A stretch of 64,000 bases of DNA, taken from Marinicella sp. (GTDB lineage Bacteria; Pseudomonadota; Gammaproteobacteria; Xanthomonadales; Marinicellaceae). Position 1 is the stretch's first letter. The number at the start of each line of letters is the position of its first letter. Of this stretch, positions 11,877 through 50,155 are shown one piece after another. The DNA lies in contig OZ246001.1 in NCBI GenBank assembly GCA_965230295.1, forward strand, positions 1,408,001-1,472,000, in the 5' to 3' direction. The notes beneath the pieces are model-generated. The model had not been told where the DNA came from and ran no database searches. It saw only the letters and a program-made list of their open reading frames with translations. Made by a program: the position numbers and the translations under genes.

Positions 11877-13457
11877 ATGCCAAAAGCGTTGATAAAACTT
11901 CTGATGTTGATGATGGTTCTCAGTGAAACATCTGTGAGTCAAACAGTTGGTCTGCAAACACACAAAGAAAATTCAGAAAATGCTTACACAATGATTTCAA
12001 GAAACGGGATCACCTACTTATTGGATACAGCAGGTTTGATCCTTCACACATGGGATCATGGTTCCAATACAAAGCATCCTGGGTATTTGCAGGACAATGG
12101 CGATTGGATCTTGGTCAGAAGAGGCATTAAAAGATACAACTGGGATGGTGACTTGGTTTGGGAATACAACAACACCGAGGCTCATCATGATGTGGCTGTG
12201 ATGCCCAATGGCAATGTGTTGCTGCTGATATGGGGATTTAAAACACAAGCAGAAGCCATAGCGGCTGGCCGGGATCCTGCCATGCTTGATGGTGATTTAA
12301 AACCCATGATGTTACATGAAGTCAATCCACAGGGTGATGTCGTCTGGGAGTGGCATGTTTGGGACCATTTGATACAGGATTTTAACCCCTTGCAAGATAA
12401 TTATGGTGTAGTGGCAGACCACCCTGAACTGGTGGACATTAATTACATGAGAAATTCAGGTGATGATTGGTTGCATGGCAATGCCATCGACTACAACCCT
12501 GAGCTTGATCAAATCATGCTGCTTCCCAGATTTATCAATGAAATTTGGATCATTGATCACAGCACCACCATCGCACAAGCGGCTGGACACTCCGGAGGGA
12601 ATGCGGGGAAAGGCGGTGATTTGCTGTATCGTTGGGGCAATCCTGCAGCCTACAGACAAAATGGGACACAGCAGAATTATGGTGGCCACGATGCCCAATG
12701 GATCAAACCAGGGCTACCAGGTGCAGGTCATATTTTGTTCTTTAATAACGGTGGCAATGATTATGGGCAAAATGGCAATTACTCCACTGTTGATGAATTT
12801 ATACCACCATTAAATGGATTCAATTATGATTTATTGCCCAGTAACACCTATGGTCCTTTGACACTGGAATGGCGTTATCAACAAACCCCTCCCGAGAATT
12901 TCTTTTCAAGTTTCATATCTGGAGCACAAAGATTACCCAATGGCAACACGTTCATAGATGAAGGAGACAAGGGACTGTTGTTTGAAGTAACCAGTGATGG
13001 CGAAATCGTTTGGCAATATCAAAACCCAATCAGCAATTCCGGTATTGTAAACCAAGGCGATAACGTACCATCAGCCCCAGCAACATCCTTATTCAGGGCC
13101 ACTAAATACCCGATTGACCACCCTGCCTTTCAGGGTCGAAACTTAACTCCATTGGGTCCAATAGAAAATTACAATGAATTTTTTGAACTCAGTATAGAGT
13201 CTTCCCACCCGGGATTGGTTATGTACCCATTGGACAATAACATGCAGCTTGGACCGGGACAGAAAATGCCATTGATTGCCGCAAAAGACAGTCAATACAT
13301 GTTTGTTGAATGGACCATTGAGTCCGGGACAATTGTCATTGATGATCTGATGAGTCGCCATACACATGTGGTTATGAATTCGGAAAATGTGACCATAAAA
13401 GCCCATTTCACCAACAATCCAGATTGGATTTTTGGCAATGGATTTGAGTCATTGTAA
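11877..13457 (+). CDS. Aryl-sulfate sulfotransferase (ASST) family protein with C-terminal small beta domain and IFGNGFE tail
   Basis: HHDVAVMPNGN, DWLHGNAIDY, HDAQWI and SGAQRLPNGNT motifs; signal peptide. Confidence 0.85.
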   Translation: MPKALIKLLMLMMVLSETSVSQTVGLQTHKENSENAYTMISRNGITYLLDTAGLILHTWDHGSNTKHPGYLQDNGDWILVRRGIKRYNWDGDLVWEYNNTEAHHDVAVMPNGNVLLLIWGFKTQAEAIAAGRDPAMLDGDLKPMMLHEVNPQGDVVWEWHVWDHLIQDFNPLQDNYGVVADHPELVDINYMRNSGDDWLHGNAIDYNPELDQIMLLPRFINEIWIIDHSTTIAQAAGHSGGNAGKGGDLLYRWGNPAAYRQNGTQQNYGGHDAQWIKPGLPGAGHILFFNNGGNDYGQNGNYSTVDEFIPPLNGFNYDLLPSNTYGPLTLEWRYQQTPPENFFSSFISGAQRLPNGNTFIDEGDKGLLFEVTSDGEIVWQYQNPISNSGIVNQGDNVPSAPATSLFRATKYPIDHPAFQGRNLTPLGPIENYNEFFELSIESSHPGLVMYPLDNNMQLGPGQKMPLIAAKDSQYMFVEWTIESGTIVIDDLMSRHTHVVMNSENVTIKAHFTNNPDWIFGNGFESL

Positions 13458-13574
13458 AAGCAACGATCATATACATGAGAATGGGATGAAATCAGTGATA
13501 AGCTGATATTTTGATGAATTGTATTGATTTGATTTGGTGCAAAATTTAGAATCGTATATTTGGTGAGTGTGAAA

Positions 13575-16421
13575 ATGAAAAATTTAGTACTAAAAGTAGG
13601 TCAATTATTTATATTGTGCTTGCTAATAAATCCTGTCAGCTTTGCGGCTCCGTTAACCAACTTCACAGTAACGCCAGCAGATTTAACAGCAGGAGCAACC
13701 ACAACTTACACCGTTCAATTTGATGCCGCATCCAGCATCAGTACATCAAGTACCAATTGGCTCAGGTTTGTCACAGGTTCTGGTGGTGCCAACTTAGACA
13801 ATGCAGTCGTTCAATCATCCTCTCCGAACATCACCATTAATTGTTCAAATTGCACCACAGTAAGTGCCTTTATACGAGTCACTGCCAGCTCAGTGGGGCC
13901 GGGCGATACTGTGACGTTCGTCTTGGGAAATGTCGTGAATCCACCAAGTCCTGGGCTTGGTCCGAACTACACAATGAATGTAGAAGACAGTGGTTACACA
14001 GCAATTGATACAGCCACAATTGGTGGCAGTTTATACACGGGTAATAACAGCCCTGTGGTAGCCAATCAGATCCCAAATCAATCAATTCAAGAACAGGATG
14101 GTGCCATCACAGTTGATTTGAATTCTGGTGCTGGTGTTAACACCAATCTGAATTACACATTCACCGATGGAGATGGCGATCCAATGACTTTCTCCATTGT
14201 TGCCGGCCATGACACCAATGTAGTCACGGCCCAGGTGGTCAGTGAAGAACTGGTGATCACTGGACAAGGTACAGGCAGCACATTTGTTACCGTTGAGGCA
14301 GATGACAGTGATGAAGGCACCATAACGGATACATTCAATGTTTCCGTTATTGGTTCTCTAGAGCCTGCTTCAGTCACGCCCGCATCGGTCATTGCCGGCG
14401 ACACAACCAACTACACCGTGGTGTTCCAACCAGCCACCGTGATTAACAGCGGTGATTTCATTATTTTAACTTCTCAAGCCAACAACCAGGATCATACCAA
14501 CAGTACCTTTGTTTCATTATCAGGTGGATTATCCGGTTTTAAATCAGCAGGCAGCGCCAATCACACAGTGATTTGGCTGAATGGTGGTTCTGCCGGTCCT
14601 GGTGACACTGTGACTCTGGTGCTGGGCAATATCGTTAACCCTGGTGCCGCTGGTCAAAGTGATGATTACACCCTGAGAACCACTGATGGTGGCAGCACAA
14701 CTGGCATCATAACCGTTCCAGGCACCGTTTATGGCAGCACCAGTACCCCAACTGTGGTCAATCCGATACCCAATCAATCGATTCAAGAACAGCAAGGCAG
14801 CATCACTGTAGATCTCAATTCGGGCGGTGGTGTCAATACTGACTTGAATTACACTTTCGTGGATGGAGATGGTCACCCATTGACGTTCACAATTGACAAT
14901 GTAGGTGACACCAATGTGGTCACAGCTCAAGTCATCAGTGATGAATTGATCATTACTGGACAAGGCACTGGATCCACCACAGTCACAGTCCGAGCAGATG
15001 ACATGATAGACGGGTCGGTGACCGACACATTTAACGTCTCTGTGGTAGGATCTTTGGCACCGGCCTCTGTGACTCCGAGCTCGAATGTAACAGCTGTCAA
15101 CTCCACCTATACGGTTGTATTTCAGCCAGCTACAGTGATTAATAATGGTGACTTTATCATCTTAAGTTCTGCTGCAAACAATCAAATCCACACCAACAGT
15201 ACACTGGTTTCTTTGTCTGGCGGACTGTCAGGCATTAGATCAGCAGGTAGTGCCAGTCATACGGTGATTCAGCTTAACGGTGGATCAGCTGGGCCAGGTG
15301 ACAGCATCACCATGGTTTTGGGTGATATCGTCAATCCGGCAGCAGCAGGTCAAAGTGATGATTACACACTCTCTACCACAGATGGTGGTAATACCACCGG
15401 CATCATAACCATAGCTGGCTCAGTTTATATTGGAACCAACCTACCTACAGTTGCCAACCCAATTCCTGACCAAGACATCGATGAAGAATCTGGCAGTATT
15501 GTGGTTGACTTAAACAGTGGTGCCGGTGTTAACACTGACCTGAACTTCACCTTTGATGATGCCGATGGTCACACATTAGCCTTCTCCATTGATGCCGGGC
15601 ATGACACCAACGTGGTACTGGCAAGCATCGTTAATGATGAATTGGTCATAACAGGGCAAGGCACAGGAACCACAACAGTTACTGTCCGGGCAGATGACAG
15701 CATTGATGGCTCAGTGGCAGACAGCTTCGATGTGGCAGTTATCGGATCATTGGCACCTGCCTCAGTCGTTCCTTCGTCTTTCAATGCAGGTGAATTAGAA
15801 TCTTACACCATTCAATTCAGGCCATCGGTCAGTTTGTCCAGCGGCGATACATTGACATTCTCGGCTCCTGGAGGACAAGACCAATCCAACAGTAGTCTGG
15901 GGCAAATCAGCGGAGGATCCATCACAGGGTCGGTCACATTCAGTGATCAAGACAGTTCAGTCGTCACATTTAATGGTGGCTTAGCCACTCCTGGGGATCT
16001 TGTCACAATTGTTTTGGACAATATATTCAACCCTGTGGCTGTAGGCATGGGGCCTGACTACCTACTCACAACTTCAGACACAGGCATAATAATCAATGGC
16101 CGTTCTACAGTAAATGGCGATGTATTCGTTGCCAGTGATTTGATTTATGAGAACGGTTTTGAACAGGTTTTCTTGAACGTTAACCAAGCAAATAACCTCC
16201 TGAAATTAATTGCTGATCATTCTGCTTCAAAATCAAATCAACTACCAAAACTCAACACCAGCTTCAATACAGTTGTCTATTTTGACCAACAAATGCGTTT
16301 GACAAATTTTGATGACATGATGCTCTGGTTTGAAACCGTGCTTGCTGTGGAAGATCCCTATGGTGACTTCGATGGTGACGGTATATTCAACCAACTTGAT
16401 TTTTATCCTTTGGGTTTTTAG
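13575..16421 (+). CDS. Secreted Ig-like/cadherin-like tandem-repeat surface protein
   Basis: Signal peptide; Thr/Ser/Val/Gly-rich; three 232-aa repeat units; DLIYENGFE motif and terminal DFDGDG. Confidence 0.8.
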   Translation: MKNLVLKVGQLFILCLLINPVSFAAPLTNFTVTPADLTAGATTTYTVQFDAASSISTSSTNWLRFVTGSGGANLDNAVVQSSSPNITINCSNCTTVSAFIRVTASSVGPGDTVTFVLGNVVNPPSPGLGPNYTMNVEDSGYTAIDTATIGGSLYTGNNSPVVANQIPNQSIQEQDGAITVDLNSGAGVNTNLNYTFTDGDGDPMTFSIVAGHDTNVVTAQVVSEELVITGQGTGSTFVTVEADDSDEGTITDTFNVSVIGSLEPASVTPASVIAGDTTNYTVVFQPATVINSGDFIILTSQANNQDHTNSTFVSLSGGLSGFKSAGSANHTVIWLNGGSAGPGDTVTLVLGNIVNPGAAGQSDDYTLRTTDGGSTTGIITVPGTVYGSTSTPTVVNPIPNQSIQEQQGSITVDLNSGGGVNTDLNYTFVDGDGHPLTFTIDNVGDTNVVTAQVISDELIITGQGTGSTTVTVRADDMIDGSVTDTFNVSVVGSLAPASVTPSSNVTAVNSTYTVVFQPATVINNGDFIILSSAANNQIHTNSTLVSLSGGLSGIRSAGSASHTVIQLNGGSAGPGDSITMVLGDIVNPAAAGQSDDYTLSTTDGGNTTGIITIAGSVYIGTNLPTVANPIPDQDIDEESGSIVVDLNSGAGVNTDLNFTFDDADGHTLAFSIDAGHDTNVVLASIVNDELVITGQGTGTTTVTVRADDSIDGSVADSFDVAVIGSLAPASVVPSSFNAGELESYTIQFRPSVSLSSGDTLTFSAPGGQDQSNSSLGQISGGSITGSVTFSDQDSSVVTFNGGLATPGDLVTIVLDNIFNPVAVGMGPDYLLTTSDTGIIINGRSTVNGDVFVASDLIYENGFEQVFLNVNQANNLLKLIADHSASKSNQLPKLNTSFNTVVYFDQQMRLTNFDDMMLWFETVLAVEDPYGDFDGDGIFNQLDFYPLGF
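14049..16133 (+). repeat. Intragenic tandem repeat, 3 x 696 bp
   Basis: Units start at 14049, 14745 and 15441 (xPxVxNxIPxQ..VDLNSGxGVNTxLNxTF); the sequences have diverged. Confidence 0.85.
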
Positions 16422-16438
16422 ACTTTAAATTCATTCAA

Positions 16439-16475
16439 TCGATGCACCACTTATATTAACTAAGTGGTGCATCGA
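16439..16475 (+). terminator. Rho-independent terminator-like hairpin
   Basis: TCGATGCACCACTTA-7nt-TAAGTGGTGCATCGA just after stop 16421. Confidence 0.7.
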
Positions 16476-16644
16476 GTCAGTTTTTAAAACCCCAAACTTC
16501 ATTAATTCACTCAATTTGCATCCCGTGAATAAGCTGTGATTCAAAGTACCATGTTGTTATTTAAAAAGTGAAAATGATCTTTGCAGAGTGGTTTCTCTGA
16601 ACTAAACTTGATCATGTGATAAACGTTTAGTGATGGGGGTTTAG

Positions 16645-18138
16645 ATGAAAAATCTGAAACACAGGGTTCAAAAAGTTGGCCTTTTCAACAGACAAGCCCA
16701 CTTACGAAAGCGGCTGATCACGCTCTGCTTACTCAGTCCTGTCTTGATATTGAATGTCTGTTTTGGCATGGATTTCGGAGATGCGCCAGACCCATTTTAT
16801 CCAACTACCCTGTCCAACGACGGAGCTCGGCACACAGCAACAGGCCCCACACTGGGTATCTTGCGAGACTCCGAAACTGACGGCCTGCCTGATGCCAATG
16901 CGTTAGGTGATGACCTGGATGGTGACTGGCTCGATGCAGGTGAGCAAATCGCCAGCAGTTCTGCCATGGCGATCGGCAACAACGTCATCAATATCAACAT
17001 CCCTTGTGGTGCCACAGCGGGCATCACATACACCCGTTTCAGGCTGAGTTCAACGGGTGGGCTTTCGCCATCAGGTCATGCAAATGACGGTGAAATCGAA
17101 GACCATGAGGTCACTTTGCTGCCTGCAACGCCGATGATCGCCTGTCCGCAAGATTTGGTGCTTAACTTTGAGGATTCGGCAGAACCCTACCGGGCTCCAG
17201 AATCCCCCATCATCCATTATGATTTCAACAACAGCAGCTTCGAAGTACAAGACATCAGTGCCAGCACAACAGTTCACAATGGATTTCAGCTCGGCGCTGT
17301 GGGTTTTCAGAATGGCATTGAAAGCATGGCGGCAGACCTCAGTACAGAGGGCTGTGTTGAAGTTCAAAACCACCCTGAGATCAACGGCGCACCTGTGGGT
17401 GATCGTTCGATCTCTTTTTGGTTCATCGTCGATACATCCGCTCCTCCTGCCCGGATAGTGGTGTATGAAGAAGGCAATGCGAACACGGGGTTATCAATTT
17501 ATGTCAATCAACTGAGCCAGGAACTCAATGTTGGCATTTGGAAGGGCCAAGGAATAGCACCCGGATTTACTGGCATTCCGGGGGTTGATTACAGTCTTCT
17601 CCAGTCTGGTATTGGCACCATCATTAACAACAATTGGTACCATGTGACCCTCGTGCTTAACAGCGCTGGAGGAACCGTTCAAGCCTTTCTTGATGGGGCA
17701 TCCATGGACAACGATACCTTTGGGTTCCCATTACCCACACACAACGGTGGTGTCTGCGTCGGTGGGGTGCATGATGATACCCGCTATTTGGACAGTGGAG
17801 AGGTTACTGATGGTGATGGAGACTACCTCAACGGTCGCATGGATCAATTCCTGCTTTACAATCGGGTGTTGACGACCGAAGAGGTCTCCGGTTTGGCCGA
17901 CATCAACCGATCGCAAAACAGCGCTGGGGGCCCTCTGGCTATAGGCAGTTGTTCTACCAACCTTGAAATAGGTCGGAACGACATCGTCAGCGCCGGTACC
18001 AGTGGCATTGTTTGGACCATAGACCGAACCTGGTCGGCTCAGAATCAAGGGGGCAACAGTGCATCGTGCATACAGGTCATTGATGGCTTCGATCCCTTTA
18101 TTTTTGGAAATGGCTTCGAACCGATCAATAATTTTTGA
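16645..18138 (+). CDS. Secreted GEVED-domain / LamG-like / HYR-like mosaic protein with IFGNGFE tail
   Basis: DFGDAP..YTRFRLS..GEIEDH (GEVED); WYHVTLV..LDG..GRMDQFLLYNRVLT (LamG); IACPQD..IDRTWSA..GNSASC (HYR-like). Confidence 0.75.
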   Translation: MKNLKHRVQKVGLFNRQAHLRKRLITLCLLSPVLILNVCFGMDFGDAPDPFYPTTLSNDGARHTATGPTLGILRDSETDGLPDANALGDDLDGDWLDAGEQIASSSAMAIGNNVININIPCGATAGITYTRFRLSSTGGLSPSGHANDGEIEDHEVTLLPATPMIACPQDLVLNFEDSAEPYRAPESPIIHYDFNNSSFEVQDISASTTVHNGFQLGAVGFQNGIESMAADLSTEGCVEVQNHPEINGAPVGDRSISFWFIVDTSAPPARIVVYEEGNANTGLSIYVNQLSQELNVGIWKGQGIAPGFTGIPGVDYSLLQSGIGTIINNNWYHVTLVLNSAGGTVQAFLDGASMDNDTFGFPLPTHNGGVCVGGVHDDTRYLDSGEVTDGDGDYLNGRMDQFLLYNRVLTTEEVSGLADINRSQNSAGGPLAIGSCSTNLEIGRNDIVSAGTSGIVWTIDRTWSAQNQGGNSASCIQVIDGFDPFIFGNGFEPINNF

Positions 18139-18229
18139 AAAATGAAATGACATCACACCTGCCAATACAAGCGTGCATGGATCAATCATTAAAGTGTATT
18201 GGCACGGAAATATCAAAAAAAATGCCCGA

Positions 18230-18585
18230 GGAAAGCTGCTGAGCAGCTTGACCCGCCGAGCCGGTTAGGCAGTGAGTGGAATAAAGGTGGTTTTGCGAAG
18301 CAAAGGAACCTTTATGCAATGAGCGATTAGCCGTGAGCTATTGATGTTGCGGCCGCTATCGTTCCTAGCTATCGCGGCAGACCTAAATCCATGTAGGCCA
18401 ATCAGAGGCGAAGAGCCCGAGATAGCATGTCATGTTCGCCGTGTTCGTTTTCACTTTTGTCTGGAACAGACATGCAGTGCGAAGCAACTGCTCAGACAAT
18501 AGTCTGTAAAGGTCGGTTTATTTGCGCAGCAAATATGAAGACCTGTCAGACCATGAACCAGAATGGAGCCCCAAGAACATTCCTT
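18230..18585. repeat. Structured intergenic repeat, copy A
   Basis: 37 bp identical to 24967-25003 and 102 bp (18455-18556) identical to 50020-50121; many nested hairpins. Confidence 0.9.
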
Positions 18586-18706
18586 TTTATCAACGGAATT
18601 ACTGCTGGCAATCCACCCTAAAAAACAGTATATTTGAGGGCAGAAGTACTCAATCGAATGGGGTTTTGTATTTCAAAATTCACTTTACTTTTACATTCAT
18701 ATTTCG

Positions 18707-19531
18707 ATGAGTCAATTACAAATTCCTATCTTGGCATACCATGCCAGTAACATCACTGGTAACAGTTATCGGTTGAATGATCACATTGCCTTTGAAAATG
18801 ACCTTTATCATATACACCAACAAGGTTTTAAAATCATCCCCCTCAAGTGGATATCAGAGTGGGTCATGGGTGACCGGGACTTGTCCCAATTGGGTAATAA
18901 ACTGATTGGTTTGAGTTGTGATGACGGATTGGATTTAGACTTTAAAGACGGTCATTATTTTGCTTTTGGTCCACAAGTCAGTTTCTACAACATTCTAAAG
19001 CACTTTGTTGAATCTGTTGGCCATGAAAACCAACCACATGCCAGTTTGACTTCTTTTGTGATTGCATCTTCCGAGGGCAGAAAGAAAATTGATGATGTTT
19101 CATTGCAAGGTCACGGCCTCTTGAATGAAGACTGGTGGCATGAAGCCAACCATTCTGATCTGATTGAAATTGAGAACCACTCCTGGGATCATCGACACCC
19201 AGACATTTACCCTGAAAACCTGGCCAACTTCACCTCTGTTCAGGACCATGAAACAGCCTATAAGCAAATTGTTGAAGCCAAAAGTTACATCGATGAAAGG
19301 TTGGGTCCAAACGGCACCGCTTTATTTGCTTACCCATGGGGTCATGTTAATGACTATTTGCTCAATGAATTTTTGCCCACCACTGGCCTTCAACATGGCA
19401 TAGAAGCGGCCTTCACCTGCGGAGCCACAAATGTAATTGAGAACACCAGCCGGTGGGAATTGCCGCGTTATATCTGTGGTTTTAACTGGAAATCTCCAAC
19501 TGAATTGAACTCAATTCTGAATTCAGTTTAA
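18707..19531 (+). CDS. Polysaccharide deacetylase (NodB/CE4-like) family protein
   Basis: PILAYH, SCDDG, ENHSWDH, FAYPWG and LPRY motifs. Confidence 0.85.
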   Translation: MSQLQIPILAYHASNITGNSYRLNDHIAFENDLYHIHQQGFKIIPLKWISEWVMGDRDLSQLGNKLIGLSCDDGLDLDFKDGHYFAFGPQVSFYNILKHFVESVGHENQPHASLTSFVIASSEGRKKIDDVSLQGHGLLNEDWWHEANHSDLIEIENHSWDHRHPDIYPENLANFTSVQDHETAYKQIVEAKSYIDERLGPNGTALFAYPWGHVNDYLLNEFLPTTGLQHGIEAAFTCGATNVIENTSRWELPRYICGFNWKSPTELNSILNSV

Positions 19532-19965
19532 AAAGAAAGCCCAATCAATCTCAGTAAGTCTGGGTAATTGGGATAGGTTAATGGCATTGCTTGGGGTTTG
19601 AGATTGTCGACCGAATTGCTTACACCCTGGTGCCGTTACACTGTGAACTGTTTGGGCATATAGTACGGAGATAATCCTTCCACCAAGATTGCACTGGGTG
19701 GCTAGATTGAAATCAGTTATTTTGTGCCAAAATTTGGCAGTCATACTTTAAGTGGGTTTCAAAAACCACTGGTCCCATCACAAAACGGCATCTTCAATGT
19801 AGAAAAACCCGGTTTTTCACCTGGGTTGTCATTGTTTTTTGAAACGGTATTGTTCAGGAATTAACAAATAGTTATCATTGATCATGTGTCGATTTTAAGG
19901 GTTCTCCAAGGAGTCACACAAAAGGTATTAAGCGGAAAGCAAAGATAAAAAGTTGGAGGTGTGAA

Positions 19966-20394
19966 GTGAGCCAAAATTTGGAAAATGATTTATTTGTAGA
20001 TATGATGAACTGGGGATTTATTGATCTGAGGAACCAGTTTAAACAAGGCATGTTTATGAACGATCATGGCAAACGTTTATTCATTAAACAAGTGTTTCCA
20101 AAGAAGTCTCCTGATCACATAGATGTGTACATGCAATATGCCCATGTGGTCTCCGTCAATGGCCATTTGAAATCCGATCCTGCAGTGGTTTTGGGGTTTG
20201 ACTTACAAGGCAAAAAGATTTATCCAGTGGTCTATCGCAATGACCTGCTCGATCACACCATACAGGTTTACGAGGATGGCACCTTGAATGAAGACAATGC
20301 TGACTGGTTATTACAGTATTGGTCAGATTGGCTCAATGAACTGAATTGTGATGACTATGACTCCCTGGACCACGCCCAATTAAAAACTGGCTGA
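19966..20394 (+). CDS. Hypothetical protein, DUF1249/DUF6908-like
   Basis: GGAGG RBS before GTG; AH..NGHLKSDP..WSDWLNEL pattern. Confidence 0.5.
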   Translation: MSQNLENDLFVDMMNWGFIDLRNQFKQGMFMNDHGKRLFIKQVFPKKSPDHIDVYMQYAHVVSVNGHLKSDPAVVLGFDLQGKKIYPVVYRNDLLDHTIQVYEDGTLNEDNADWLLQYWSDWLNELNCDDYDSLDHAQLKTG

Positions 20395-20518
20395 ACCCGA
20401 ATCACGTCCAACCAGTCACTCTGAATCTTTTGATACCGCCATCATCGGTGATGTCACCATTTCGGGAGGTCGACTCCTTTGGGTACCAGTATATTGATTC
20501 CAAACTTTTCTTGTTTCA

Positions 20519-21277
20519 TTAAGAGGATTGTTTGATCTCAGCACTGACAGTTTTCTTTACCGAAGGGATCAGCATTGGCACCTGGTCTTTATACGCTCTG
20601 TAGGTATCGCCAAATTCATCTTCTAAATCCTTTTCTTCAAACTGAATGGCCACCACTATGTAAGCTGTGCACATCATTGCGAAAACAAAATGAGCAACCG
20701 TCATCACAGGTGCAGCCCACACAACAACGATCCAACCCACATACAAAGGGTGTCGAACGTATTTATACAAAGAAGGTGTCACGAAATGAGCGTCTTGATA
20801 TGTTTTCCCAACCAACTGGGCCCACACTTGTTGTAAGCCAAACAAGTGAAAATGATTGATCAAAAGGGTTGATACCAGAACCAGTGCCCAACCAAACATA
20901 TAAACAGTCAGGATGGCAGATTTGGCAAAACCACCGTCTGCACTCCATACAACACCACCCATGGGCTCCCAAAAATAAAACATGATGATCATGGCAACAT
21001 TCGACAACAAAACGTAAGTCGAACGCTCTGCTGAGCTGGGGATGTATTTGGTGATCCAGTTTTTGAAACCTTTCCTCGCCATGCCGCTGTGTTGCACAGC
21101 AAAAACTGTCAACAGCCCTAAATTAATCAAGAGTGCTTGTATAAAGGGTACCCCTGGCAGGGCGTCAATGGAGTTGCTCACTCTGATGTTACCGATAAAG
21201 CCAACGGCATAAATAAAGACCGCCAGAAACATCAAGTAACAAGTCAAACCGTAAATGAATATAGATATTTTTTTCAT
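20519..21277 (-). CDS. mddA: Methanethiol S-methyltransferase (ICMT-like membrane methyltransferase)
   Basis: FAVQHSGMAR, ERSTYVL, HLFGLQQV, LYKYVRHPLY and FEEKDL motifs; GAGGT RBS before ATG 21277. Confidence 0.85.
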   Translation of the reverse strand: MKKISIFIYGLTCYLMFLAVFIYAVGFIGNIRVSNSIDALPGVPFIQALLINLGLLTVFAVQHSGMARKGFKNWITKYIPSSAERSTYVLLSNVAMIIMFYFWEPMGGVVWSADGGFAKSAILTVYMFGWALVLVSTLLINHFHLFGLQQVWAQLVGKTYQDAHFVTPSLYKYVRHPLYVGWIVVVWAAPVMTVAHFVFAMMCTAYIVVAIQFEEKDLEDEFGDTYRAYKDQVPMLIPSVKKTVSAEIKQSS

Positions 21278-21369
21278 GATATAAACCTCGATTATGTTAA
21301 TATTATTAAAATTCAACGCATTCAAGCCGTTGATCTTGCTCCATTATGTTTTTTTTAAAATTTTGTACT

Positions 21370-21410
21370 TGACCATTCAATGACGTTTCAATGACCATTC
21401 AATGACCAAT
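21370..21410. promoter_or_regulatory. Four 11-bp-periodic direct repeats, probable winged-helix regulator binding site
   Basis: TGACCATTCAA TGACGTTTCAA TGACCATTCAA TGACCAAT between divergent mddA and the CadC-like gene. Confidence 0.7.
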
Positions 21411-21430
21411 AAAAAACATCTTTAAATACA

Positions 21431-23785
21431 ATGATTTATAAAATTCATAATCACATAATTGATGGCAATTTAAGGTCTGTTTCAGTTGATGGAAAACAGT
21501 TGAATGTCGAGCCCAAAGTTTATGACCTGATATATTTCCTGATCCAAAACCCGAATAAAGCCATCAGTAAAGATCAGTTACAAGATGCAGTGTGGCCTGG
21601 ACTTGAGGTATCTGAAACAGCGATTACCAGGGCTATCATGAAAGCCCGGAAATGTCTGAATGATGGCAATGACGTACAAAGTTACATCCAAACCATTCAT
21701 GGTCATGGCTATAAACTGGTGGCCAATATTGAAGTCATTGATAAGGCTGTTGTGCCTGGTGCGACCCATTCTATTCTCCCATGGTGGCAAAGAAAAAAAG
21801 TACTGTTTGTATTGGCCCTGACGGCCTTGTTGAGCTTCATTGGTGTTGGCTCACTATATTTAAACCGGGATGTTGTTGATGACAGCTCTAAATTGGCAGT
21901 GCTGCCTGTCATCAACAAAACCAACAACAAGGACTTCAGCTGGGTGTCATTGGGTCTAATGAGTCTGGCGGTGCAAATGATTCAAGCAGAAAACAGCATC
22001 AGCACCATTTCCAACAGCGCATCTTCTCAAATCAAAGACCTGGAGTTAGCAGATGACTTTCAGATGGCTGATGAACAAATCAGCTCATTAAAAGATCAAT
22101 TGAAAGCCACCCATTTGGTTTTTTCCATGTTGGAAAATGCAGATGACGATTTATTCAAATTGAGTTATTCTGTTTACCACCCCAAAGGCAAACAAGACGT
22201 CATTGAGTTGGTGGGAAACAACCCGACTGAACTCACGCAAAAGATGGTGAATCAAATCACCAACAAACTACCCAATTCATCCATTGCCATACCTAAGTTC
22301 AAAGCCATTTCAGACAACAGCTTCACCAATGAACTGTATGCCCGGGGTGTGGCTCACAGGCTTGAAGGCGATGCGAAAGCTGCCAGAGGGTACTTCAGTT
22401 TGGTGATTAAAGAAGAACCTGATTTATTTTGGCCACGATATCAATACGCCCTCACCTCCAATAAACTGGGGCAATATGATGAAGCCATTGAATCCCTTGA
22501 ACAACTATTGAAAGACATCCCGACAATCCTCAATGACAAAGACCTGGAGGCAGGGGTCAATAATGCCATTGGCATATCTTACATGCAGAAATCAGACCAC
22601 AAGCAAGGCATTGCCTACTATTCGAAAGCCTATGAAATCGCCAAGGAAAGTGGCAACCGAGATTACCAGGAAAAAATAGCCAGCAACATTGCCTGGATTT
22701 ACAAAGACAAAAGAGACTTTGATAAATCCAGGGTCTGGTTAGCCAAGTCCATTGAATCCAGAAAAGGCTTAGACCTTCCACCAAACATCAACAACATTTA
22801 CCTGAAAGGTCAGCTCGAGTACTTAATGAATCATTTTGATAAAGCCGAAGACATCTTCAAAGAGGCTTATGATTTGTATGTAGAGAACAACCACAATCGC
22901 CAGGCAGCCAAAGTGTTGAACTTAAGGGCCAAGGTTCAAAACCTGAAAGGCAGCTGGTCAAAAGCCCATGAAATTGTTGATGAATCATTCAAACTCAGTG
23001 AGAAAGTCGATGATGACTTGGGTCGATTGGACAGTCACTACATGCGCACCCAGGTATACTCCAATGAAGGTAAATACAGTCAAGCCATGACACTGGTTAA
23101 CGAAAACACCGTTAAAGCCGAGGCCCTGAATCAACAAAGGAAGTTACAAAACTGGAAAAAGCAGGAAATAAACCTCCTTTACAAACAGGGATCTTATGAG
23201 TTGGCACTAGAAAAACTCGAAAACATGGAAAAACAAAACGAATCTTCTGAAAAAGAATTGAGTGAGTCCATGCAGTTGATCAAGCATAAAATCGCCTATA
23301 CCACGGGTAACCCAGAACCACTGTTGAATTGGATAACAGACTATTCTGAAGATAACCAGAATCAAAATTCTCAATCTCAACTCAAAATCCAAAGACTCAA
23401 GATCTTCATGTTGGAAGCAGACCGAGAAAAAGGTAAGTCCGTTAACAATGATACTTCGATGGAATCGCTGATAAGCGCTTATCGCCATGCCATCAAGTTA
23501 GAACATGAGTTAGGCTACCAAGCCAGCCTGGCCAAAAAACTGATTAAAATTGCCCAATTGAACATCCAAAGTGGCAACCAACCAGGGTTTACCGATGCCT
23601 ACAACGAATTGCAGTTATTGGAATTGGATTGGTGGCAGGTGGATTTACTGACCGCCTACAAAGAACACCAAGCTGGCAATTTTAAACATGCCAAAGTATT
23701 GGCTGCCCAGGCTAAGCAAAATTCAACTGAGAACTGGAACGAAAAGGACGAGGAAATATTCATTTTAATCGATAGCCCGGTCTGA
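21431..23785 (+). CDS. CadC/ToxR-like membrane-anchored regulator (OmpR-type wHTH - TM - TPR)
   Basis: EPKVYDLI..SKDQLQDAVW..YIQTIHGHGYK, then a TM helix, LAVLP and helical TPR-like repeats. Confidence 0.88.
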   Translation: MIYKIHNHIIDGNLRSVSVDGKQLNVEPKVYDLIYFLIQNPNKAISKDQLQDAVWPGLEVSETAITRAIMKARKCLNDGNDVQSYIQTIHGHGYKLVANIEVIDKAVVPGATHSILPWWQRKKVLFVLALTALLSFIGVGSLYLNRDVVDDSSKLAVLPVINKTNNKDFSWVSLGLMSLAVQMIQAENSISTISNSASSQIKDLELADDFQMADEQISSLKDQLKATHLVFSMLENADDDLFKLSYSVYHPKGKQDVIELVGNNPTELTQKMVNQITNKLPNSSIAIPKFKAISDNSFTNELYARGVAHRLEGDAKAARGYFSLVIKEEPDLFWPRYQYALTSNKLGQYDEAIESLEQLLKDIPTILNDKDLEAGVNNAIGISYMQKSDHKQGIAYYSKAYEIAKESGNRDYQEKIASNIAWIYKDKRDFDKSRVWLAKSIESRKGLDLPPNINNIYLKGQLEYLMNHFDKAEDIFKEAYDLYVENNHNRQAAKVLNLRAKVQNLKGSWSKAHEIVDESFKLSEKVDDDLGRLDSHYMRTQVYSNEGKYSQAMTLVNENTVKAEALNQQRKLQNWKKQEINLLYKQGSYELALEKLENMEKQNESSEKELSESMQLIKHKIAYTTGNPEPLLNWITDYSEDNQNQNSQSQLKIQRLKIFMLEADREKGKSVNNDTSMESLISAYRHAIKLEHELGYQASLAKKLIKIAQLNIQSGNQPGFTDAYNELQLLELDWWQVDLLTAYKEHQAGNFKHAKVLAAQAKQNSTENWNEKDEEIFILIDSPV

Positions 23786-23828
23786 CCAAGGTCAAATGGG
23801 TGAATAAACCGCAATTGGAAAGGGCACA

Positions 23829-24941
23829 ATGATACCAAACAACACAAAAATTCTTATTGTTGGCGCTGGTCCCACTGGCTTAACGGCAGCCGTAGAATTG
23901 GCCAGACAAGGCATCATCCCAACCATAATTGACAAGCGTTCTCGGGTATCAAATCTAAGTCGCGCGGTTGGCATAACCCCAAAAAGTTTAGCAATTCTTT
24001 CTCAATGCGGCGTTGATAAGAGGTTGATTGCAGAGGGTATCGCCATCCAAAACAGCCATGTGTTTATACATGATCGACTCAGTCTTTCAGTCAAACTTCA
24101 TTCTGCACGCAGCCACTTTCATACTTTGCTGGGCTTACCTCAGGATCGAACTGAGAAGGTCTTGCTTGATAAATTCAAATCATATGGCGGCACTGTGAAC
24201 TATGGTGTTGAATTCATCAACTATCAGCCTATTGATCCTGAGCATGGCCACAATTTACATGTTTATTTACGCCAAACAAATGAATCCAAGACTGATAACG
24301 TCTTTGAAGAAAATTTCGATTTTATTTTTGGTGCCGATGGCATCAACAGTCAAGTCCGTAAAACCGCTCAAATTCCCTATATCGGTTACGACCTGAGAAC
24401 CACATGGTCAATTGCTGATGTCAATATCAACAATTGGCCATACCCCAATGATTTTTGCTTATTTAAACTCCCAAAAGGTCAAATGATGGTGGTGGTCGCT
24501 ATTGGCAAAAACCGTTACCGAATGGTTTCCAACACACATGATTCCATAGCTGCATTGCCGTTGCAATCTGAAATCACCCATACCCATCGCGAAGGTACTT
24601 TTAATATTGCTGTGCGGCAAGCCAAGACTTATGCCAAAGACCATGTGTTCATCGGTGGTGATGCAGCACACTGTCACTCACCGGTGGGTGGTCGGGGAAT
24701 GAACCTGGGCATTGCCGATGCCGCCCAATGGGTGGCCTGTTTAGTAGAAGGGCGCCTGGATAATTACACCGAGATTCGGCACAAAGCAGGCCAAAAAATC
24801 ATAAAAATGAGTGAGCGCGGGCGTCGAATGATTTCGTCCAAATCCTGGTTTAAGAACACGCTGTTCAAACTGTTTATTGGAACCGCAAAGCATGTCAATT
24901 GGATCAAAAAACGCTTCAGTCAATTCATCATAGAGTTTTAA
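23829..24941 (+). CDS. FAD-dependent monooxygenase (PheA/TfdB-like)
   Basis: GAGPTG, GADG and GDAAHCHSPVGGRGMNLG motifs. Confidence 0.9.
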   Translation: MIPNNTKILIVGAGPTGLTAAVELARQGIIPTIIDKRSRVSNLSRAVGITPKSLAILSQCGVDKRLIAEGIAIQNSHVFIHDRLSLSVKLHSARSHFHTLLGLPQDRTEKVLLDKFKSYGGTVNYGVEFINYQPIDPEHGHNLHVYLRQTNESKTDNVFEENFDFIFGADGINSQVRKTAQIPYIGYDLRTTWSIADVNINNWPYPNDFCLFKLPKGQMMVVVAIGKNRYRMVSNTHDSIAALPLQSEITHTHREGTFNIAVRQAKTYAKDHVFIGGDAAHCHSPVGGRGMNLGIADAAQWVACLVEGRLDNYTEIRHKAGQKIIKMSERGRRMISSKSWFKNTLFKLFIGTAKHVNWIKKRFSQFIIEF

Positions 24942-24966
24942 CGGGCTGATCAGGGGCCTTTTCACC

Positions 24967-25115
24967 GGAAAGCTGCTGAGCAGCTTGACCCGCCGAGCCG
25001 GTTGGTGAGCTTTGCGAATCAGAGGCGAAGAGCGCGAGGTAGCAAGTCATGTTCGCCGTGGTCGTTTTCACTTTTGTCTGGAACAAAAGTGAATGAAGCC
25101 CCAAGAACATTCCTT
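24967..25115. repeat. Structured intergenic repeat, copy B (short form)
   Basis: Same termini as copy A but lacks both internal modules; contains the hairpin TTCACTTTTGT-CTGGA-ACAAAAGTGAA. Confidence 0.9.
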
Positions 25116-25191
25116 CATTAATGGTTGTGGTTTGATCTGATGCTTGAATGGCTGCTGATGGTTGAAAAATCTGCAGCCATTACATCGGCAA

Positions 25192-27177
25192 TCACTCAAC
25201 AAAAGCCGGCAGGATTCGCTCTGCGGTTGTTTGCAGGTAAGCGGTATCGTTATCATGACCGGTGTGCACAATCAGCAGGTCCAATGCCTCAATCAGGGTG
25301 ATTAACTGACCATAGCCCCCTTGGGCAGACGCGCTGAAATATCTTTGATTCCTGAAGTGTAAATCCGCGCTCCACCAGTAATATCCATAGCCCTGATTTG
25401 AAACATTTTTACCACCGTAATGGAGCTCTTCATCGCTGGTATCAACGATCCTATCAATGGCTTTGACCACAAAGGCTTCAGGAATCAACTGTTCATCATT
25501 CCACCTGCCTTTGTTCATGGCCAAAATGCCCATTTTGACCATATCACGTGATGTCATGCTTGAGGATGAACCTGCCCTGGGCAAGCCACTGACATCATCA
25601 CGCCAGCCATAATTTCTGATGCCCATTTTACCGAGAAGCTCTTTTTCAATAAAGTCCTGGGCAGTTCCCGGAACGACAGCTTCAATGACCTGCATCACCA
25701 AGGTTGGGTCCAATTGATATTTAAAACGCTGCGATTCTTCGGTGATCGGTTCGCTGAGTTCGAGGTAGGCTTGAATTTGCCCTTGGCCTTTCAGTTTGTC
25801 GGTGTCTTTCTCTAATGCTTCATGTTGTTCTTCACTGATGCGGATACCGGAACGCATGGTCATCGCCTGATGTAAAGTGATCTTCTCTGCCCCGTCAACT
25901 AATTTCGTTGGATCTAAATCCTTGAGAAAACTGATCAAAGGCTGGTCTAAATCGGCCATGCTCAAATAACCCAACTGGATGGCACGGCCAAGTGCCAAGC
26001 CAGTATAAGCTTTGGTCGCTGACGCTTGCGGATGCGGCAGATCAACACGCCCGCGCAAATAATAAGATTCAAATACCAGTTTGCCTTTGTGGACAATCAG
26101 TAGGCTGTCGTAACCACCGTGCTTGGCGCCAGCAATCTCTTGAGCCAACTGCATGACCAGCTCTTGATTACCGCCATCTGTGCCCAACTTTCCGATCTGT
26201 ATACCGTCTTTTTTGTCATCCGGACTGGCATCAATGAAGGCTTGTTCAAGTAAAGGCAGGTCCCAAAAGGCAAGCTCCTTTTCAGCGTCTGTGGCCATGG
26301 GTGCAAGACCAGCGTCTTGTGTCCTGAGCGTCTCAATGATTTTGGCATCAACCCAATAGATATCGGTGTTATCCGATTCCAAGTCTGCTTTTCTGTTGAA
26401 TAAAATGTACTTGCCATCCGGGGTGACCGTGGCAAAGGCATCCCAGCCTGGCGAATTGACACTTTCTCCCATATTAATCGCAGACCCCCAAGAGCCATCT
26501 TTTTGGCGAAAACTGATGTACAAGTCTGAATCGCCAAAACCACCTTCACGTTCACTGTCCCAAATCAGGTAACTTTCATCAGGAGCAATGAAAGGGTGGG
26601 CGGTCCATTTTCCTGTGTTGACCACAGCGCCCATGGGCACGGGTGCTTGACGCACACCACCCTTAACCGTGGAGATGCGGATCAAATCATTGCTTTTATA
26701 ATCATCAAACACATACGTTCCATGGGCTGATGACGTCAATCGCATGATGCCCCAATCATCTCTGTCGAAAAGGGGGCCTAAACTTTTGCGTTCGGACCAA
26801 CCGTCACCGATGCGCTCTTTATAGCCTTTGGCCATGTGCATGCGCTGGCCATCCGGTGAAAATGTCACTTCACCACGCCGCTTGAATGATGTGTACTTCT
26901 TCCACTCATTGTTTTCTTGACGCAGACCGATCACTGTAATGGGCATGCCTTCACCGCTTCTGGTGGTGAAATAAAATTCTTTCATACCCGGCGCAAACAC
27001 GCCCTCAAGTTCCCAACCATCGATAGAAATGATGCCTGGTGCAAAGGGTTCGGCCACCATGCCAGGCGGCGGCTGTCCCAGCAGTGGGCCTTTGAGCACA
27101 GGAAATGTTCGTTGAGCGTCACTGCGACATCTGTCAGAAAACCCCACCAAAACCAGCAGAATCATGAAAAATTTCAT
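25192..27177 (-). CDS. Secreted fusion: PD40 beta-propeller + beta-lactamase-fold serine hydrolase
   Basis: N-terminal half is similar to 6616-7605 (LKG..GQxPPG..FAP). C-terminal half has SxxK (SATK), ITLHQAMTMRSG and YGYYWW..AQGGYGQ. Confidence 0.85.
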   Translation of the reverse strand: MKFFMILLVLVGFSDRCRSDAQRTFPVLKGPLLGQPPPGMVAEPFAPGIISIDGWELEGVFAPGMKEFYFTTRSGEGMPITVIGLRQENNEWKKYTSFKRRGEVTFSPDGQRMHMAKGYKERIGDGWSERKSLGPLFDRDDWGIMRLTSSAHGTYVFDDYKSNDLIRISTVKGGVRQAPVPMGAVVNTGKWTAHPFIAPDESYLIWDSEREGGFGDSDLYISFRQKDGSWGSAINMGESVNSPGWDAFATVTPDGKYILFNRKADLESDNTDIYWVDAKIIETLRTQDAGLAPMATDAEKELAFWDLPLLEQAFIDASPDDKKDGIQIGKLGTDGGNQELVMQLAQEIAGAKHGGYDSLLIVHKGKLVFESYYLRGRVDLPHPQASATKAYTGLALGRAIQLGYLSMADLDQPLISFLKDLDPTKLVDGAEKITLHQAMTMRSGIRISEEQHEALEKDTDKLKGQGQIQAYLELSEPITEESQRFKYQLDPTLVMQVIEAVVPGTAQDFIEKELLGKMGIRNYGWRDDVSGLPRAGSSSSMTSRDMVKMGILAMNKGRWNDEQLIPEAFVVKAIDRIVDTSDEELHYGGKNVSNQGYGYYWWSADLHFRNQRYFSASAQGGYGQLITLIEALDLLIVHTGHDNDTAYLQTTAERILPAFVE

Positions 27178-28034
27178 TGCGATTCTCCATTTTTAGTTAC
27201 CCTGCTTAACCAACTCACACTGCGAACGCCAGTCAGTGGAGCGGCGGTTTGGTGGTTGCCTTCCACCTCATCAGTTTTGATCGATATGTTTTGGCCATAC
27301 TTGGCTTTCATCATGTTTGTAAAGGTATCAATTGGAGCCTTCCTGTCCTGTTCTAAGGTCCCGTAGGATACATAAACATTGACTGGATTTTGGGTGAGTG
27401 GTGCTGAATCAGGATTCAGTGCTTCTAACAGGGGGTTGCTGTTTTGCAGTGTGGGGCTGCCAATGATGTAATTGTTGAAGGTGTCCGGCTGGGCTGCCAA
27501 AGCATACGCTCCAAAAAGTCCACCCAATGAGTAGCCGAAATAAGTCCGCTTACTTGGGTCGGTTTGAAAATTTTTTTCGATGTATTTAATCACATCATTG
27601 CGAATGAACTTGAGGTGTTGGCTGGCCTGGCCAAATTGGTATTTGGCTTGCCTTTCTGGGTCACTTGACGCCTTGATGGTATAGTCGCTGAAGCGGCTGG
27701 CATACTCACCAATGTCATTGATGGTGCCCTCAGCCAAATTCTTTTGCCAAGAAATACCCACCAAAATGGCATCCTCCATGATGAATTCAGCAGCCGAGGA
27801 CAGCATTTCGATTTGCCACACCGCGTCAGTGAAATAGATCACAGGATGGCTGACGTTTTTGTCAACAGCATAGTTTTCTGGCAATTTGATATACAATTCA
27901 TATTGTTTGTCTGAAGCAGAATCATGGACAGGGATGACTTGTGTTCTGGGCATGGTATAGGCTGTTTGCCCAGGGCCGGCTGTGCCGATCATAGGTACCA
28001 ATAGCAACCACATGGCGTATAAATTTTTCTTCAT
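27174..28034 (-). CDS. Secreted alpha/beta hydrolase (IroE-like esterase)
   Basis: YIKLP..PVIYFTD and GYSLGG nucleophile motifs; signal peptide; ATGA overlap with the next gene. Confidence 0.85.
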   Translation of the reverse strand: MKKNLYAMWLLLVPMIGTAGPGQTAYTMPRTQVIPVHDSASDKQYELYIKLPENYAVDKNVSHPVIYFTDAVWQIEMLSSAAEFIMEDAILVGISWQKNLAEGTINDIGEYASRFSDYTIKASSDPERQAKYQFGQASQHLKFIRNDVIKYIEKNFQTDPSKRTYFGYSLGGLFGAYALAAQPDTFNNYIIGSPTLQNSNPLLEALNPDSAPLTQNPVNVYVSYGTLEQDRKAPIDTFTNMMKAKYGQNISIKTDEVEGNHQTAAPLTGVRSVSWLSRVTKNGESQ

Positions 28035-28090
28035 TGGGCTTATTTCTCATTTGAAAAACGCCCATCTTAGGCATCGAGCTATAAAAATAC

Positions 28091-28134
28091 CTGAAGTCGA
28101 GCTGACTTCTGGCTGATTTCTGACTGATACTGGA
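28091..28134. promoter_or_regulatory. Four 11-bp-periodic CTGA repeats, probable winged-helix regulator site
   Basis: CTGAAGTCGAG CTGACTTCTGG CTGATTTCTGA CTGATACTGGA in the divergent intergenic region. Confidence 0.6.
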
Positions 28135-28199
28135 ATTTAGATTGGCTAGCCGTCCTGATATTTAGTTACAATTGGGGTTCATGTTTAGCTAACTCAGGT

Positions 28200-30320: not shown

Positions 30321-30324
30321 TAAG

Positions 30325-30359
30325 AAAACCCCGAATCCCGGTTTTTGATTCGGGGTTTT
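30325..30359. terminator. Bidirectional terminator-like hairpin
   Basis: AAAACCCCGAATC-9nt-GATTCGGGGTTTT between convergent genes. Confidence 0.75.
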
Positions 30360-30370
30360 GTGGGTGGGAT

Positions 30371-49713: not shown

Positions 49714-49733
49714 TGCATCAAGCTACATTCATT

Positions 49734-50147
49734 GGAGAACTGGTGATCAGTTCGACCAGCGCAGGTAATGAAAGCATGGTGGTTTACCTGAAAGGTAATA
49801 AGCCTTGCTTGAATACCGTAGCGCGTGCTCTCGGTTAGGCAGGCTATGAAGTAATTGCGGTTTTGCAAAGCAAAGAAGCAATTTCGTAATGGCCGATCAG
49901 CCGTGAAGTCATGCTGGTCGCTATCGCATCCTGCTCACGCGACAGACCTACATCCATGTAGGCCAGTCAGAGAGAGCAAGCCCGAGGTAGTAAGTTATGC
50001 TCACTGCGGTCGCTTTCATTTTTGTCTGGAACAGACATGCAGTGCGAAGCAACTGCTCAGACAATAGTCTGTAAAGGTCGGTTTATTTGCGCAGCAAATA
50101 TGAAGACCTGTCAGACCATGAGCCAGAATGAAGACCCAAGGGCATTC
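49734..50147. repeat. Structured intergenic repeat, copy C (longest and most diverged)
   Basis: 102 bp identical to copy A; flanking stems show compensatory changes. Confidence 0.88.
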
Positions 50148-50155
50148 ATTAAGTG

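Follow-up and report, generated by a model that had tools for sequence, protein, structure and literature searches.

The window analysed here, 64,000 nucleotides of Marinicella sp. (assembly GCA_965230295.1, contig OZ246001.1, positions 1,408,001 to 1,472,000), contains three intergenic segments, A, B and C, built on one scaffold and differing by large blocks that are present in one copy and absent in another. They raise the question of what kind of genetic element they represent, which strand and which nucleic acid carries their fold and how they spread. An initial annotation had described them as co-oriented copies of a structured family and had proposed either a non-autonomous mobile element of the HUH/RAYT type (RAYT, REP-associated tyrosine transposase; REP, repetitive extragenic palindrome) or an unnamed family of non-coding RNAs (ncRNAs). 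Our data make it fairly probable that the three segments belong to a family of non-autonomous mobile elements having one folded DNA strand as the active form, and being moved by an enzyme that is neither the RAYT of this genome nor a recognised IS200/IS605, IS91, IS110 or TnpB protein. The three copies are:

18230..18585, + strand: copy A, 356 nt, scaffold plus modules M1 and M2 as delimited by alignment
24967..25115, + strand: copy B, 149 nt, bare scaffold, with 14 copies of the same size in the genome at a median identity of 93.3%
49734..50150, + strand: copy C, 417 nt, a diverged subfamily, scaffold plus modules M0, M1 and M2

The alignment agrees with the description of B as the bare scaffold to which A adds two and C three modules. 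For C the start had been placed correctly, whereas its end lies at 50150 (...GGCATTCATT), 3 nt later than the proposed 50147.

Folding strand and probable movement of the element

A selected single-strand fold is evident from 31 aligned bare scaffolds (alignment A2), 15 of them from the window's own genome (G000, a single contig of 4,008,074 bp with 44% G+C) and 16 from other genomes, for which RNAalifold returned a consensus fold of 42 pairs. Standard pairs occupy 98.2% of the 1302 cells, and 17 of the 42 pairs show double-sided changes compared to 5.1 +/- 1.2 in 500 shuffles, none of which reaches the observed number. The shuffle test is inflated by the relatedness of the sequences; a control in which the partners were slid by 1-3 columns retains this relatedness, yields 2-5 double-change pairs and is equally clear. 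All four stem pairs originally quoted for A and B versus C are present, i.e. AAGCTG/CAGCTT vs GAACTG/CAGTTC, ATAAAGGT/ACCTTTAT vs AATTGC/GCAATT, GCCGC/GCGGC vs GTCGC/GCGAC and ATGTTC/GAACAT vs ATGCTC/GGGCAT, the last including one G.T. The claim that the stems covary and that selection acts on a folded single strand is borne out by the double changes exceeding both controls and by the G.U pairs and GNA loops being one-stranded.

The folding strand is the strand as read in the window, on which three signals agree, namely the G.U pairs, the GCGNAGC motif and a C at position -4 of both element junctions. By a hand count from the pair tables, which makes the totals approximate, the sense strand holds ~116 G.U cells, two pairs being invariantly G.U, vs 7 A.C cells; this excess identifies the folding strand, as folding of the opposite strand would show the numbers reversed. 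Mutation bias from replication does not explain it, since in most copies the sense strand lies on the C-rich strand of the chromosome, where the expected bias would create A.C and not G.T. GCGNAGC is found 94 times in sense and 0 times in antisense orientation in 24.9 kb of elements, its density being 3.8 per kb in the elements vs 0.095 per kb per strand genome-wide, and the shorter CGNAG occurs 262 times in sense vs 5 times in antisense orientation.

Movement of the element is indicated by the contigs of three public runs (X1, X2 and X3) mapped on window positions 12000-31999. In X2 as well as in X3 a single contig connects 18229 with 18586 and bypasses precisely the 356 nt of A; in X1 a single contig of depth 4 (main depth ~14) connects 24966 with 25116 and bypasses precisely the 149 nt of B. 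At these three joints the ends of the skipped segment read GG..TT, and 0 letters fit on either side of the joint at once. The element is thus either there as an exact unit or missing, with no duplication of the target. Empty sites, which the initial annotation had proposed to look for in sister strains, are seen for A as well as for B in contigs of related populations. The idea of a non-autonomous mobile element without terminal inverted repeat (TIR) or target-site duplication (TSD) is in line with these exact skips, with the lack of shared bases and with the target signature described below. Among the genus representatives no empty site was recovered, the flanks of A being only 66-74% identical and too diverged.

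Complete elements were defined by a paired 5' and 3' end, giving 72 pairs in G000, and the flanks of 67 of them were analysed, 5 having been dropped due to weak end alignment. A C precedes the 5' junction at position -4 in 51 of the 67 copies, the frequency of C in intergenic DNA being 0.195 (p = 2e-23). At positions -3 to -1 there is A/T richness only, and positions +1 to +4 are A/T-rich as well, with a T at +3 in 45 of 67. In other genomes this C is seen at 15 of 22 5' ends of loci, and for G021 and G023 together at 19 of 26. The empty allele of A (CCGA|TTTA) retains the C, which thus belongs to the target and not to the element. At the right junction it is the element itself that ends in C-C-T-T or in C-A-T-T, C-T-T-T and similar, placing a C at -4 in all 67 copies. 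The antisense strand has no junction C signal, and inspection of the 67 copies by eye revealed neither a TSD nor a sequence link between left and right flank.

Several copies are arranged head to tail. Outside the window, G000 1313017-1313529 holds 4.2 head-to-tail units of a 122-nt minimal variant lacking the 5' hairpin P1. This array adjoins REP copies and lies just upstream of a gene. Overlapping consecutive covariance-model hits in G015, G008 and G018 are read as arrays, the one of G015 also in its sequence, and in G024 (L141, G024:C1:3942853-3945983) ORFs (open reading frames) with a repeating ~39-aa peptide imply two arrays of scaffold-related tandem units of ~117 nt flanking a 178-aa ORF. 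A remnant 3' end lies directly before the copy at G000 2488338, as it does before copy C. The end of the element is itself a C-N-N-N site, which explains the insertion directly behind a resident copy. In the translations no nuclease or recombinase was seen beside the low-copy arrays of G024 and G015, the neighbours of which look like cyclophilin-type and transporter genes in G024 and like cysS, sufE-like and nagZ-like genes in G015.

We propose a model in which a trans-acting enzyme would nick single-stranded DNA after a tetranucleotide starting with C, forming a covalent link of the 5'-phosphotyrosine type, with one cut in the left flank (C-N-N-N|GGAAAG...) and the other at the element's own end (...C-C-T-T|). 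The element would be released without duplication and re-inserted after another C-N-N-N, and insertion at the 3' end of a resident copy would generate the head-to-tail arrays. Most of the surviving copies would be those having the folding strand as leading-strand template, which would rarely be single-stranded and would allow less folding and excision. This resembles the 'peel and paste' logic of IS200/IS605 as outlined in PMC5027513 and PMC6006769.

Scaffold, modules and distribution of the family

The scaffold is composed of the P1 hairpin, at a distance of 3 nt from the 5' end, a helix around the invariant junction GGTTGG-[tip hairpin]-TCAGAG, an irregular long hairpin on the 3' side, in which P4 (ATGTTC/GAACAT) is followed by GTCGYTTTCA-[P5]-TGAATGAAGNCCC, and the end ...CAAGAACATTCCTT. 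The 3' hairpin has the form GGNCGRTTT-[hairpin]-AWGAAGNCC and is succeeded by CCCAAG...CATTCCTT. In the window these parts are found as follows:

18226..18229, + strand: left flank of A, CCGA, with the C at -4 of the target signature
18233..18249, + strand: P1 hairpin of A, AAGCTGC-TGA-GCAGCTT, starting 3 nt from the 5' end
18267..18399, + strand: module M1 of A, branched, in place of the small tip hairpin of B at 25000-25025
18469..18565, + strand: module M2 of A, in place of the tip of the long 3' hairpin
18566..18585, + strand: 3' terminal segment of A, ...CCCCAAGAACATTCCTT, ending in CCTT with the C at -4 of the right junction
25000..25025, + strand: junction and tip hairpin of B, GGTTGG-TGAGC...GCGAA-TCAGAGG, the position of M1 in A and C
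25049..25110, + strand: long irregular 3' hairpin of B, P4 ATGTTC/GAACAT enclosing GTCGTTTTCA-[P5 hairpin 25069-25091]-TGAATGAAGCCCC
49719..49733, + strand: remnant of the 3' end of an older copy (CAAGCTACATTCATT), 15 nt, directly before C, a head-to-tail insertion site
49757..49827, + strand: module M0 of C, an additional hairpin of the sub-unit type, located between P1 and the core
49837..49964, + strand: module M1 of C, from the alignment
50034..50130, + strand: module M2 of C, from the alignment

P1 of A contains covarying pairs (alignment columns 4-10 with 14-20), and compensatory changes are present in P4 and P5 as well, while the columns of the B junction and tip hairpin are invariant in 31 copies and include the two invariant G.U pairs. 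The long 3' hairpin of B is the archetype of a repeated sub-unit, GGNCGRTTT-[hairpin]-AWGAAGNCC (elsewhere written GGCGRTTT-hairpin-AAGAAGCC), which recurs in M2 of A as GTCGGTTT-hairpin-ATGAAGACC. Alignment of 31 size-class representatives reveals that the scaffold is fixed and that six or seven blocks are optional, always at constant positions; these blocks substitute hairpin tips, and each of them is a sub-unit with a different, internally complementary apical stem. The strict sub-unit pattern is found 113 times in sense and 0 times in antisense orientation in the 72 elements, and 167 times genome-wide on both strands. The plug-in modules are iterations of the element's own 3' domain, grown at hairpin tips; there is no sign of them being independent insertions, since they do not carry the ends of the element. 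As far as Rfam and the literature searched cover such elements, a scaffold with an iterated branched sub-unit and tip modules appears to have no described counterpart, and none of the papers listed for Marinicella repeats was relevant to the element. In one further copy, G000 3334366-3334786, a 28-nt repeat (GAATGAAGACCTGTCAGACCATGAACCA-like) stands three times in tandem at the end of the 3' module, which looks like internal slippage.

Within the window, the ORFs upstream of A and B end at 18138 and 24941, and the stop before C lies at ~49713. The description of the copies as lying shortly downstream of a + strand gene is accurate for all three of them and does not extend to the family, as outlined below. 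A is overlapped only by two short, spurious-looking ORFs of 64 and 62 aa, and no TIR of A, B or C exists beyond GGAA...TTCC, in line with the initial annotation. The window contains two further repeats: the segment 30842-31046, a repeat of ~205 nt unrelated to the element, with 13 genome copies at 70-76% identity, a contig depth peak and no Rfam match, and the segment 31160-31228, a short repeat with the hairpin CCCGGTCAAGCCGGG and few other copies, one of which (G000 2068456-2068525) is 96% identical over 70 nt.

The element is abundant in G000. BLAST searches with A, B and C resulted in 401 hits merging into 128 intervals, B alone giving 63 and C 64 matches, far above chance; the BLASTN comparison against the own genome suggested at the outset thus uncovers a large family. 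Joining pieces at most 400 nt apart and requiring a minimum of 100 nt gives 93 loci. We count 88 5' ends and 111 3' ends, and many solo 3' ends of ~25 nt are present. The 72 complete elements amount to 24.9 kb or 0.62% of G000 and range from 149 to 633 nt (122-633 nt with the minimal variant included) in discrete size classes, among them 149 nt with 14, 236 nt with 6-7 and 633 nt with 5-7 members. They have sharp GG...CCTT boundaries and unrelated flanks, and the identity within one size class is 87-99%, with medians of 93.3% for the 149-nt and 96.4% for the 633-nt class. At spacings from 634 to 6000 nt no 5' end of G000 pairs with a 3' end, which leaves no candidate for a gene-carrying master copy in this range.

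The family is spread over the genus Marinicella, and three further genera contain weaker relatives. BLAST found matches in 18 of 23 congeners and a weak match in 1 of 16 genomes of other families; the one other genus of the same family that was searched gave none. The covariance model of the scaffold (R1), run against 151 genomes of the order, detected it in 15, i.e. in 11 of the 12 congeners searched, in G024 from another genus of the family and in G033 and G031 from two other families. Scanning 185,579 species genomes for an exact 21-nt pattern returned 42 loci, 23 of them in Marinicella records, 16 in metagenome bins with no finer label than Proteobacteria, Gammaproteobacteria or Lysobacterales, and 3 in unrelated taxa, the last being within the estimated chance expectation. 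Among congeners the copy number varies from 0 to >90. The whole 64-kb window has 0 Rfam matches at gathering score; with E up to 10 there are 0 matches around A and two chance-level ones around C (14.2 and 13.4 bits vs gathering scores of 72 and 35), leaving the element without an Rfam family. An origin from phages or plasmids was considered and rejected, as no match was obtained in phage and plasmid collections and none for the 21-nt pattern in viral contigs.

Replication, neighbouring genes and the search for the mover

The origin of G000 was placed by the minimum of the cumulative GC skew at 1.71 Mb, by the gene strand bias, which switches at this minimum and at the maximum at 3.82 Mb, and by dnaA at 1.721 Mb. 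The sense strand of the element coincides with the leading-strand template at 67 of 93 loci (p = 2.5e-5) and for 53 of the 72 complete elements, regardless of gene direction (19 of 26 with neighbours on the leading and 16 of 18 with neighbours on the lagging strand). The sign of the local 20-kb skew, a replichore proxy which is correct for 72 of 72 elements in G000, indicates the same bias in G021 (11 of 13 with clear skew). Sedentary integrons show a similar arrangement, 25 of 30 holding the folding attC strand on the leading-strand template according to PMC5371416. We interpret the bias as survivorship, an explanation already put forward for these integrons: copies with the folding strand exposed on the lagging-strand template would fold, be excised and get lost more often, a reading that is weakened by the bias missing in G023.

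The neighbouring genes, taken from crude ORF calls, have no fixed relation to the element: the upstream gene has the same orientation in 49 and the opposite one in 42 cases, the downstream gene in 44 vs 47, and at 21 of 91 loci both neighbours run opposite to the element (25% expected at random). No promoter-like and no sense-strand terminator-like site belonging to A or B was found, and the upstream flanks have no common sequence except for the C at -4. Of 709 predicted hairpin loops, 334 are triloops, including 131 of the C-GNA-G type, and neither GNRA nor UNCG tetraloops are among the commonest loop types listed. PMC13037366 and PMC3201870 describe GCGNAGC and d(GNA) loops closed by C:G as extra-stable DNA mini-hairpins. 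We favour DNA rather than RNA as the active fold, based on an orientation unrelated to the neighbours, the lack of promoter and terminator, the C-GNA-G triloops and the link to replication.

Regarding the mover, G000 encodes one Y1_Tnp protein of 187 aa (L112:1300-1863; G000 1669261-1669821, outside the window), ~50 kb from the origin, which scores 39.9 bits with Pfam and 67 bits with NCBIfam REP_Tyr_transpos, below the cut-off of 80. The gene is flanked by classical REPs, GGAGCG-TYGAC-TTCA-GTCRA-CG (GTTGACTTCAGTCAAC-type), that are unrelated to the element and the 10-nt core of which occurs 41 times in G000 (18 + 23 by orientation) vs ~7 expected. The element copies nearest to it are ~10 kb or more away. 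This RAYT-like gene and its REPs are a separate REP/RAYT system of G000. RAYT orthologues with at least 50% identity exist only in G023, G003 and G012, with G003 being devoid of the element. Pfam Y1_Tnp is found in 16 of 24 congeners; the model has no match in G021 (99% complete, at least 20 copies of the element), G019, G016, G015 and G013, nor in G024 (100% complete) and G033. At G014:C15:8370-10298 and G022:C1:348926-351506 a 181-aa Y1_Tnp gene lies 1.4-2 kb from a hit of the scaffold model; this gene type was not found in G000, G021 and G019.

The other enzyme classes searched for are distributed no more consistently. Over cut-off, TnpB occurs in 0 of 24 genomes and IS110 (DEDD_Tnp_IS110) in 6 of 24, not including G000, G019 and G021; the IS91 Y2_Tnp is found in 1 of 24, namely G022, and reverse transcriptase (RVT_1) has no match in G000. 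An integron integrase was rejected as a candidate, being over cut-off only in G021 and G033 of 5 genomes and not in G000 and G024. G000 has no protein family with at least 3 copies at 70% or higher identity, from which it follows that it is practically without insertion sequences. An extra topoisomerase paralogue tracking the element was rejected as well: there is one type IA gene per complete genome, split hits in fragmented assemblies look like one gene interrupted by contig ends, and nothing is left to correlate.

The rival explanations differ in what is held to be selected. A multi-copy structured ncRNA family, comprising small-RNA genes or cis elements in untranslated regions with a fold selected as RNA and an unrelated mode of spread, would account for the strong one-strand covariation, the invariant G.U pairs and tandem G.A motifs, the conserved unpaired junction motifs and the tip modules, which vary like the expansions of large RNAs, and it fits A, B and C each lying just 3' of a co-oriented gene. 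We consider it unlikely, given an orientation that is unrelated to the flanking genes, including loci antisense to both, and that tracks the replichore instead, flanks conserving nothing upstream but the C at -4, tandem units that leave no room for a promoter, A and B having neither promoter-like site nor sense terminator, triloops of the DNA mini-hairpin type and the lack of an Rfam match. Of the two possibilities raised by the initial annotation the mobile element is favoured over the ncRNA family, owing to the exact skips and the target signature. The element might instead be a single-stranded DNA signal serving the host, such as a site on the leading-strand template at which priming or restart takes place, or a landing site for a fork or nucleoid protein, its mobility being secondary. 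Structured single-stranded origins and priming signals of phages and rolling-circle plasmids are like in kind, 67 of 93 loci have the fitting orientation, and conservation of the motif extends past the genus, where it is present in few copies and often in arrays; against this stand the copy number of 0 to >90 among congeners, the polymorphism of individual copies in related populations and a bias that amounts to only 72% and is absent in G023, rendering a host signal improbable.

Other rivals accept mobility and assign a different mover. That the element is an oversized repeat of the REP type or a bacterial interspersed mosaic element (BIME), moved by the genome's RAYT or another Y1 transposase of the IS200/IS605 type, is suggested by the absence of TIR and TSD, the hairpins near both ends, the insertion after a flank tetranucleotide, the last four bases serving as right cleavage site and the Y1_Tnp gene of G000. 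We nevertheless judge it highly improbable: this gene has its own, different REPs, its orthologues do not track the element, an element-free G003 being among their few hosts, no Y1_Tnp match was obtained in the element-bearing G021, G019, G016, G015, G024 and G033, and relative to the replichore the element is oriented the other way round from the IS200/IS605 family. For the same reasons the RAYT link proposed initially is not supported. A classical miniature inverted-repeat transposable element derived from a DDE transposon would likewise be small, non-coding, intergenic and present in many copies, but a TIR of at most 4 bp, no TSD (0 shared bases, unrelated flanks), neither a protein family of three or more similar copies nor a multi-copy insertion sequence, and a strand-specific selection for which a double-stranded DNA transposon has no need make this origin extremely improbable.

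Housekeeping enzymes may also be considered. Topoisomerase I forms a 5'-phosphotyrosine link, with the same polarity as HUH transposases; to our knowledge it has not been found to move any genetic element, and we found nothing relevant in the literature linking it with non-autonomous hairpin repeats. As stated in PMC3467081, the enzyme cuts single-stranded DNA where a C stands four nucleotides to the 5' side; on the folding strand this matches both junctions of the element, a likeness confined to one base position. Mobilisation by the housekeeping TopA without any dedicated transposase, which rests on this one base position, would be a rather unlikely solution. In such a case the enzyme would cut twice at the base of the closing stem, the element would leave as a single-stranded circle, the donor would be resealed, and the circle junction ...CCTT|GGAAAG... 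would be cut again and inserted after any exposed C-N-N-N.

Several observations weigh against a mobile element acting as one folded DNA strand. Folding energy, rejected by us as a strand test for being weak, makes the sense strand barely more stable than the antisense strand (in 54 of 72 elements with RNA and 46 of 72 with DNA parameters), and when B is taken by itself, the antisense strand has the better z-score. Functional RNAs, too, typically contain invariant G.U pairs and tandem G.A motifs. The skipping joints come from one contig per run at a depth of 3-4 and leave undefined what lies between the joined positions, so that a replacement by other letters is possible. The target consists of one conserved base and A/T richness, a much weaker signal than the four or five nucleotides targeted by IS200/IS605. 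In G023 there is no replichore bias, 6 copies being on the C-rich strand vs 7, and many of the copies in this genome are degenerate. Finally, IS608 and ISDra2 place their active strand on the lagging-strand template (PMC6006769), the opposite of what is seen for the element.

Relation to known repeats and meaning

In its logic the family is likest the gene-less elements derived from IS200/IS605 and the REP/BIME repeats, and it departs from them in enzyme, target and replication orientation. With IS200/IS605 and its gene-less derivatives, the palindrome-associated elements, it has in common the lack of TIR and TSD, hairpins near both ends, here P1 located 3 nt from the 5' end and P4/P5 ending 5 nt from the 3' end, both covarying, insertion just 3' of a short flank sequence, the last four bases as right cleavage site, one active strand and an orientation tied to replication. 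In contrast to IS200/IS605, no TnpA (Y1) co-occurs with it, the target is only the C at -4, the active strand is mostly the leading-strand template, and the body of the element is branched and modular, reaching up to 633 nt, whereas IS200/IS605 has two simple end hairpins. REP/BIME repeats, including REPINs, are likewise intergenic, abundant, hairpin-forming, mosaic in their motif combinations and sometimes clustered; they differ in being 20-40-nt palindromes compared to branched units of 122-633 nt, the element forms no inverted doublets, and the RAYT is flanked by other REPs.

Integron attC sites are also folded single strands recognised less by sequence than by structure, with a variable hairpin tip and tandem arrays, but the element has no R''/R' core sites by eye, no cassettes and occurs as dispersed single copies. 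The pneumococcal BOX (boxA-boxB-boxC) is a modular, non-coding repeat with optional repeated internal modules between fixed ends, a resemblance in build; its host belongs to an unrelated phylum, and we know of no replichore bias or C(-4) target of BOX.

REP, BIME, BOX and Correia are examples of gene-less hairpin repeats that shape bacterial genomes, several of which have no assigned mover. The Marinicella family adds a large, branched and modular representative with a readable active strand, exact ends and a target base. Its host is almost free of insertion sequences, and several element-bearing species have no recognised single-strand transposase, making the question of what moves orphan repeats directly testable here. 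The sub-unit with its GCGNAGC mini-hairpins provides a natural example of a large folded single-stranded DNA architecture. There is a real chance that the mechanism of the element is new: the mover could be a new class of nuclease or a housekeeping enzyme such as topoisomerase I, and if the latter is true, the family would represent a mobile element driven by a topoisomerase.

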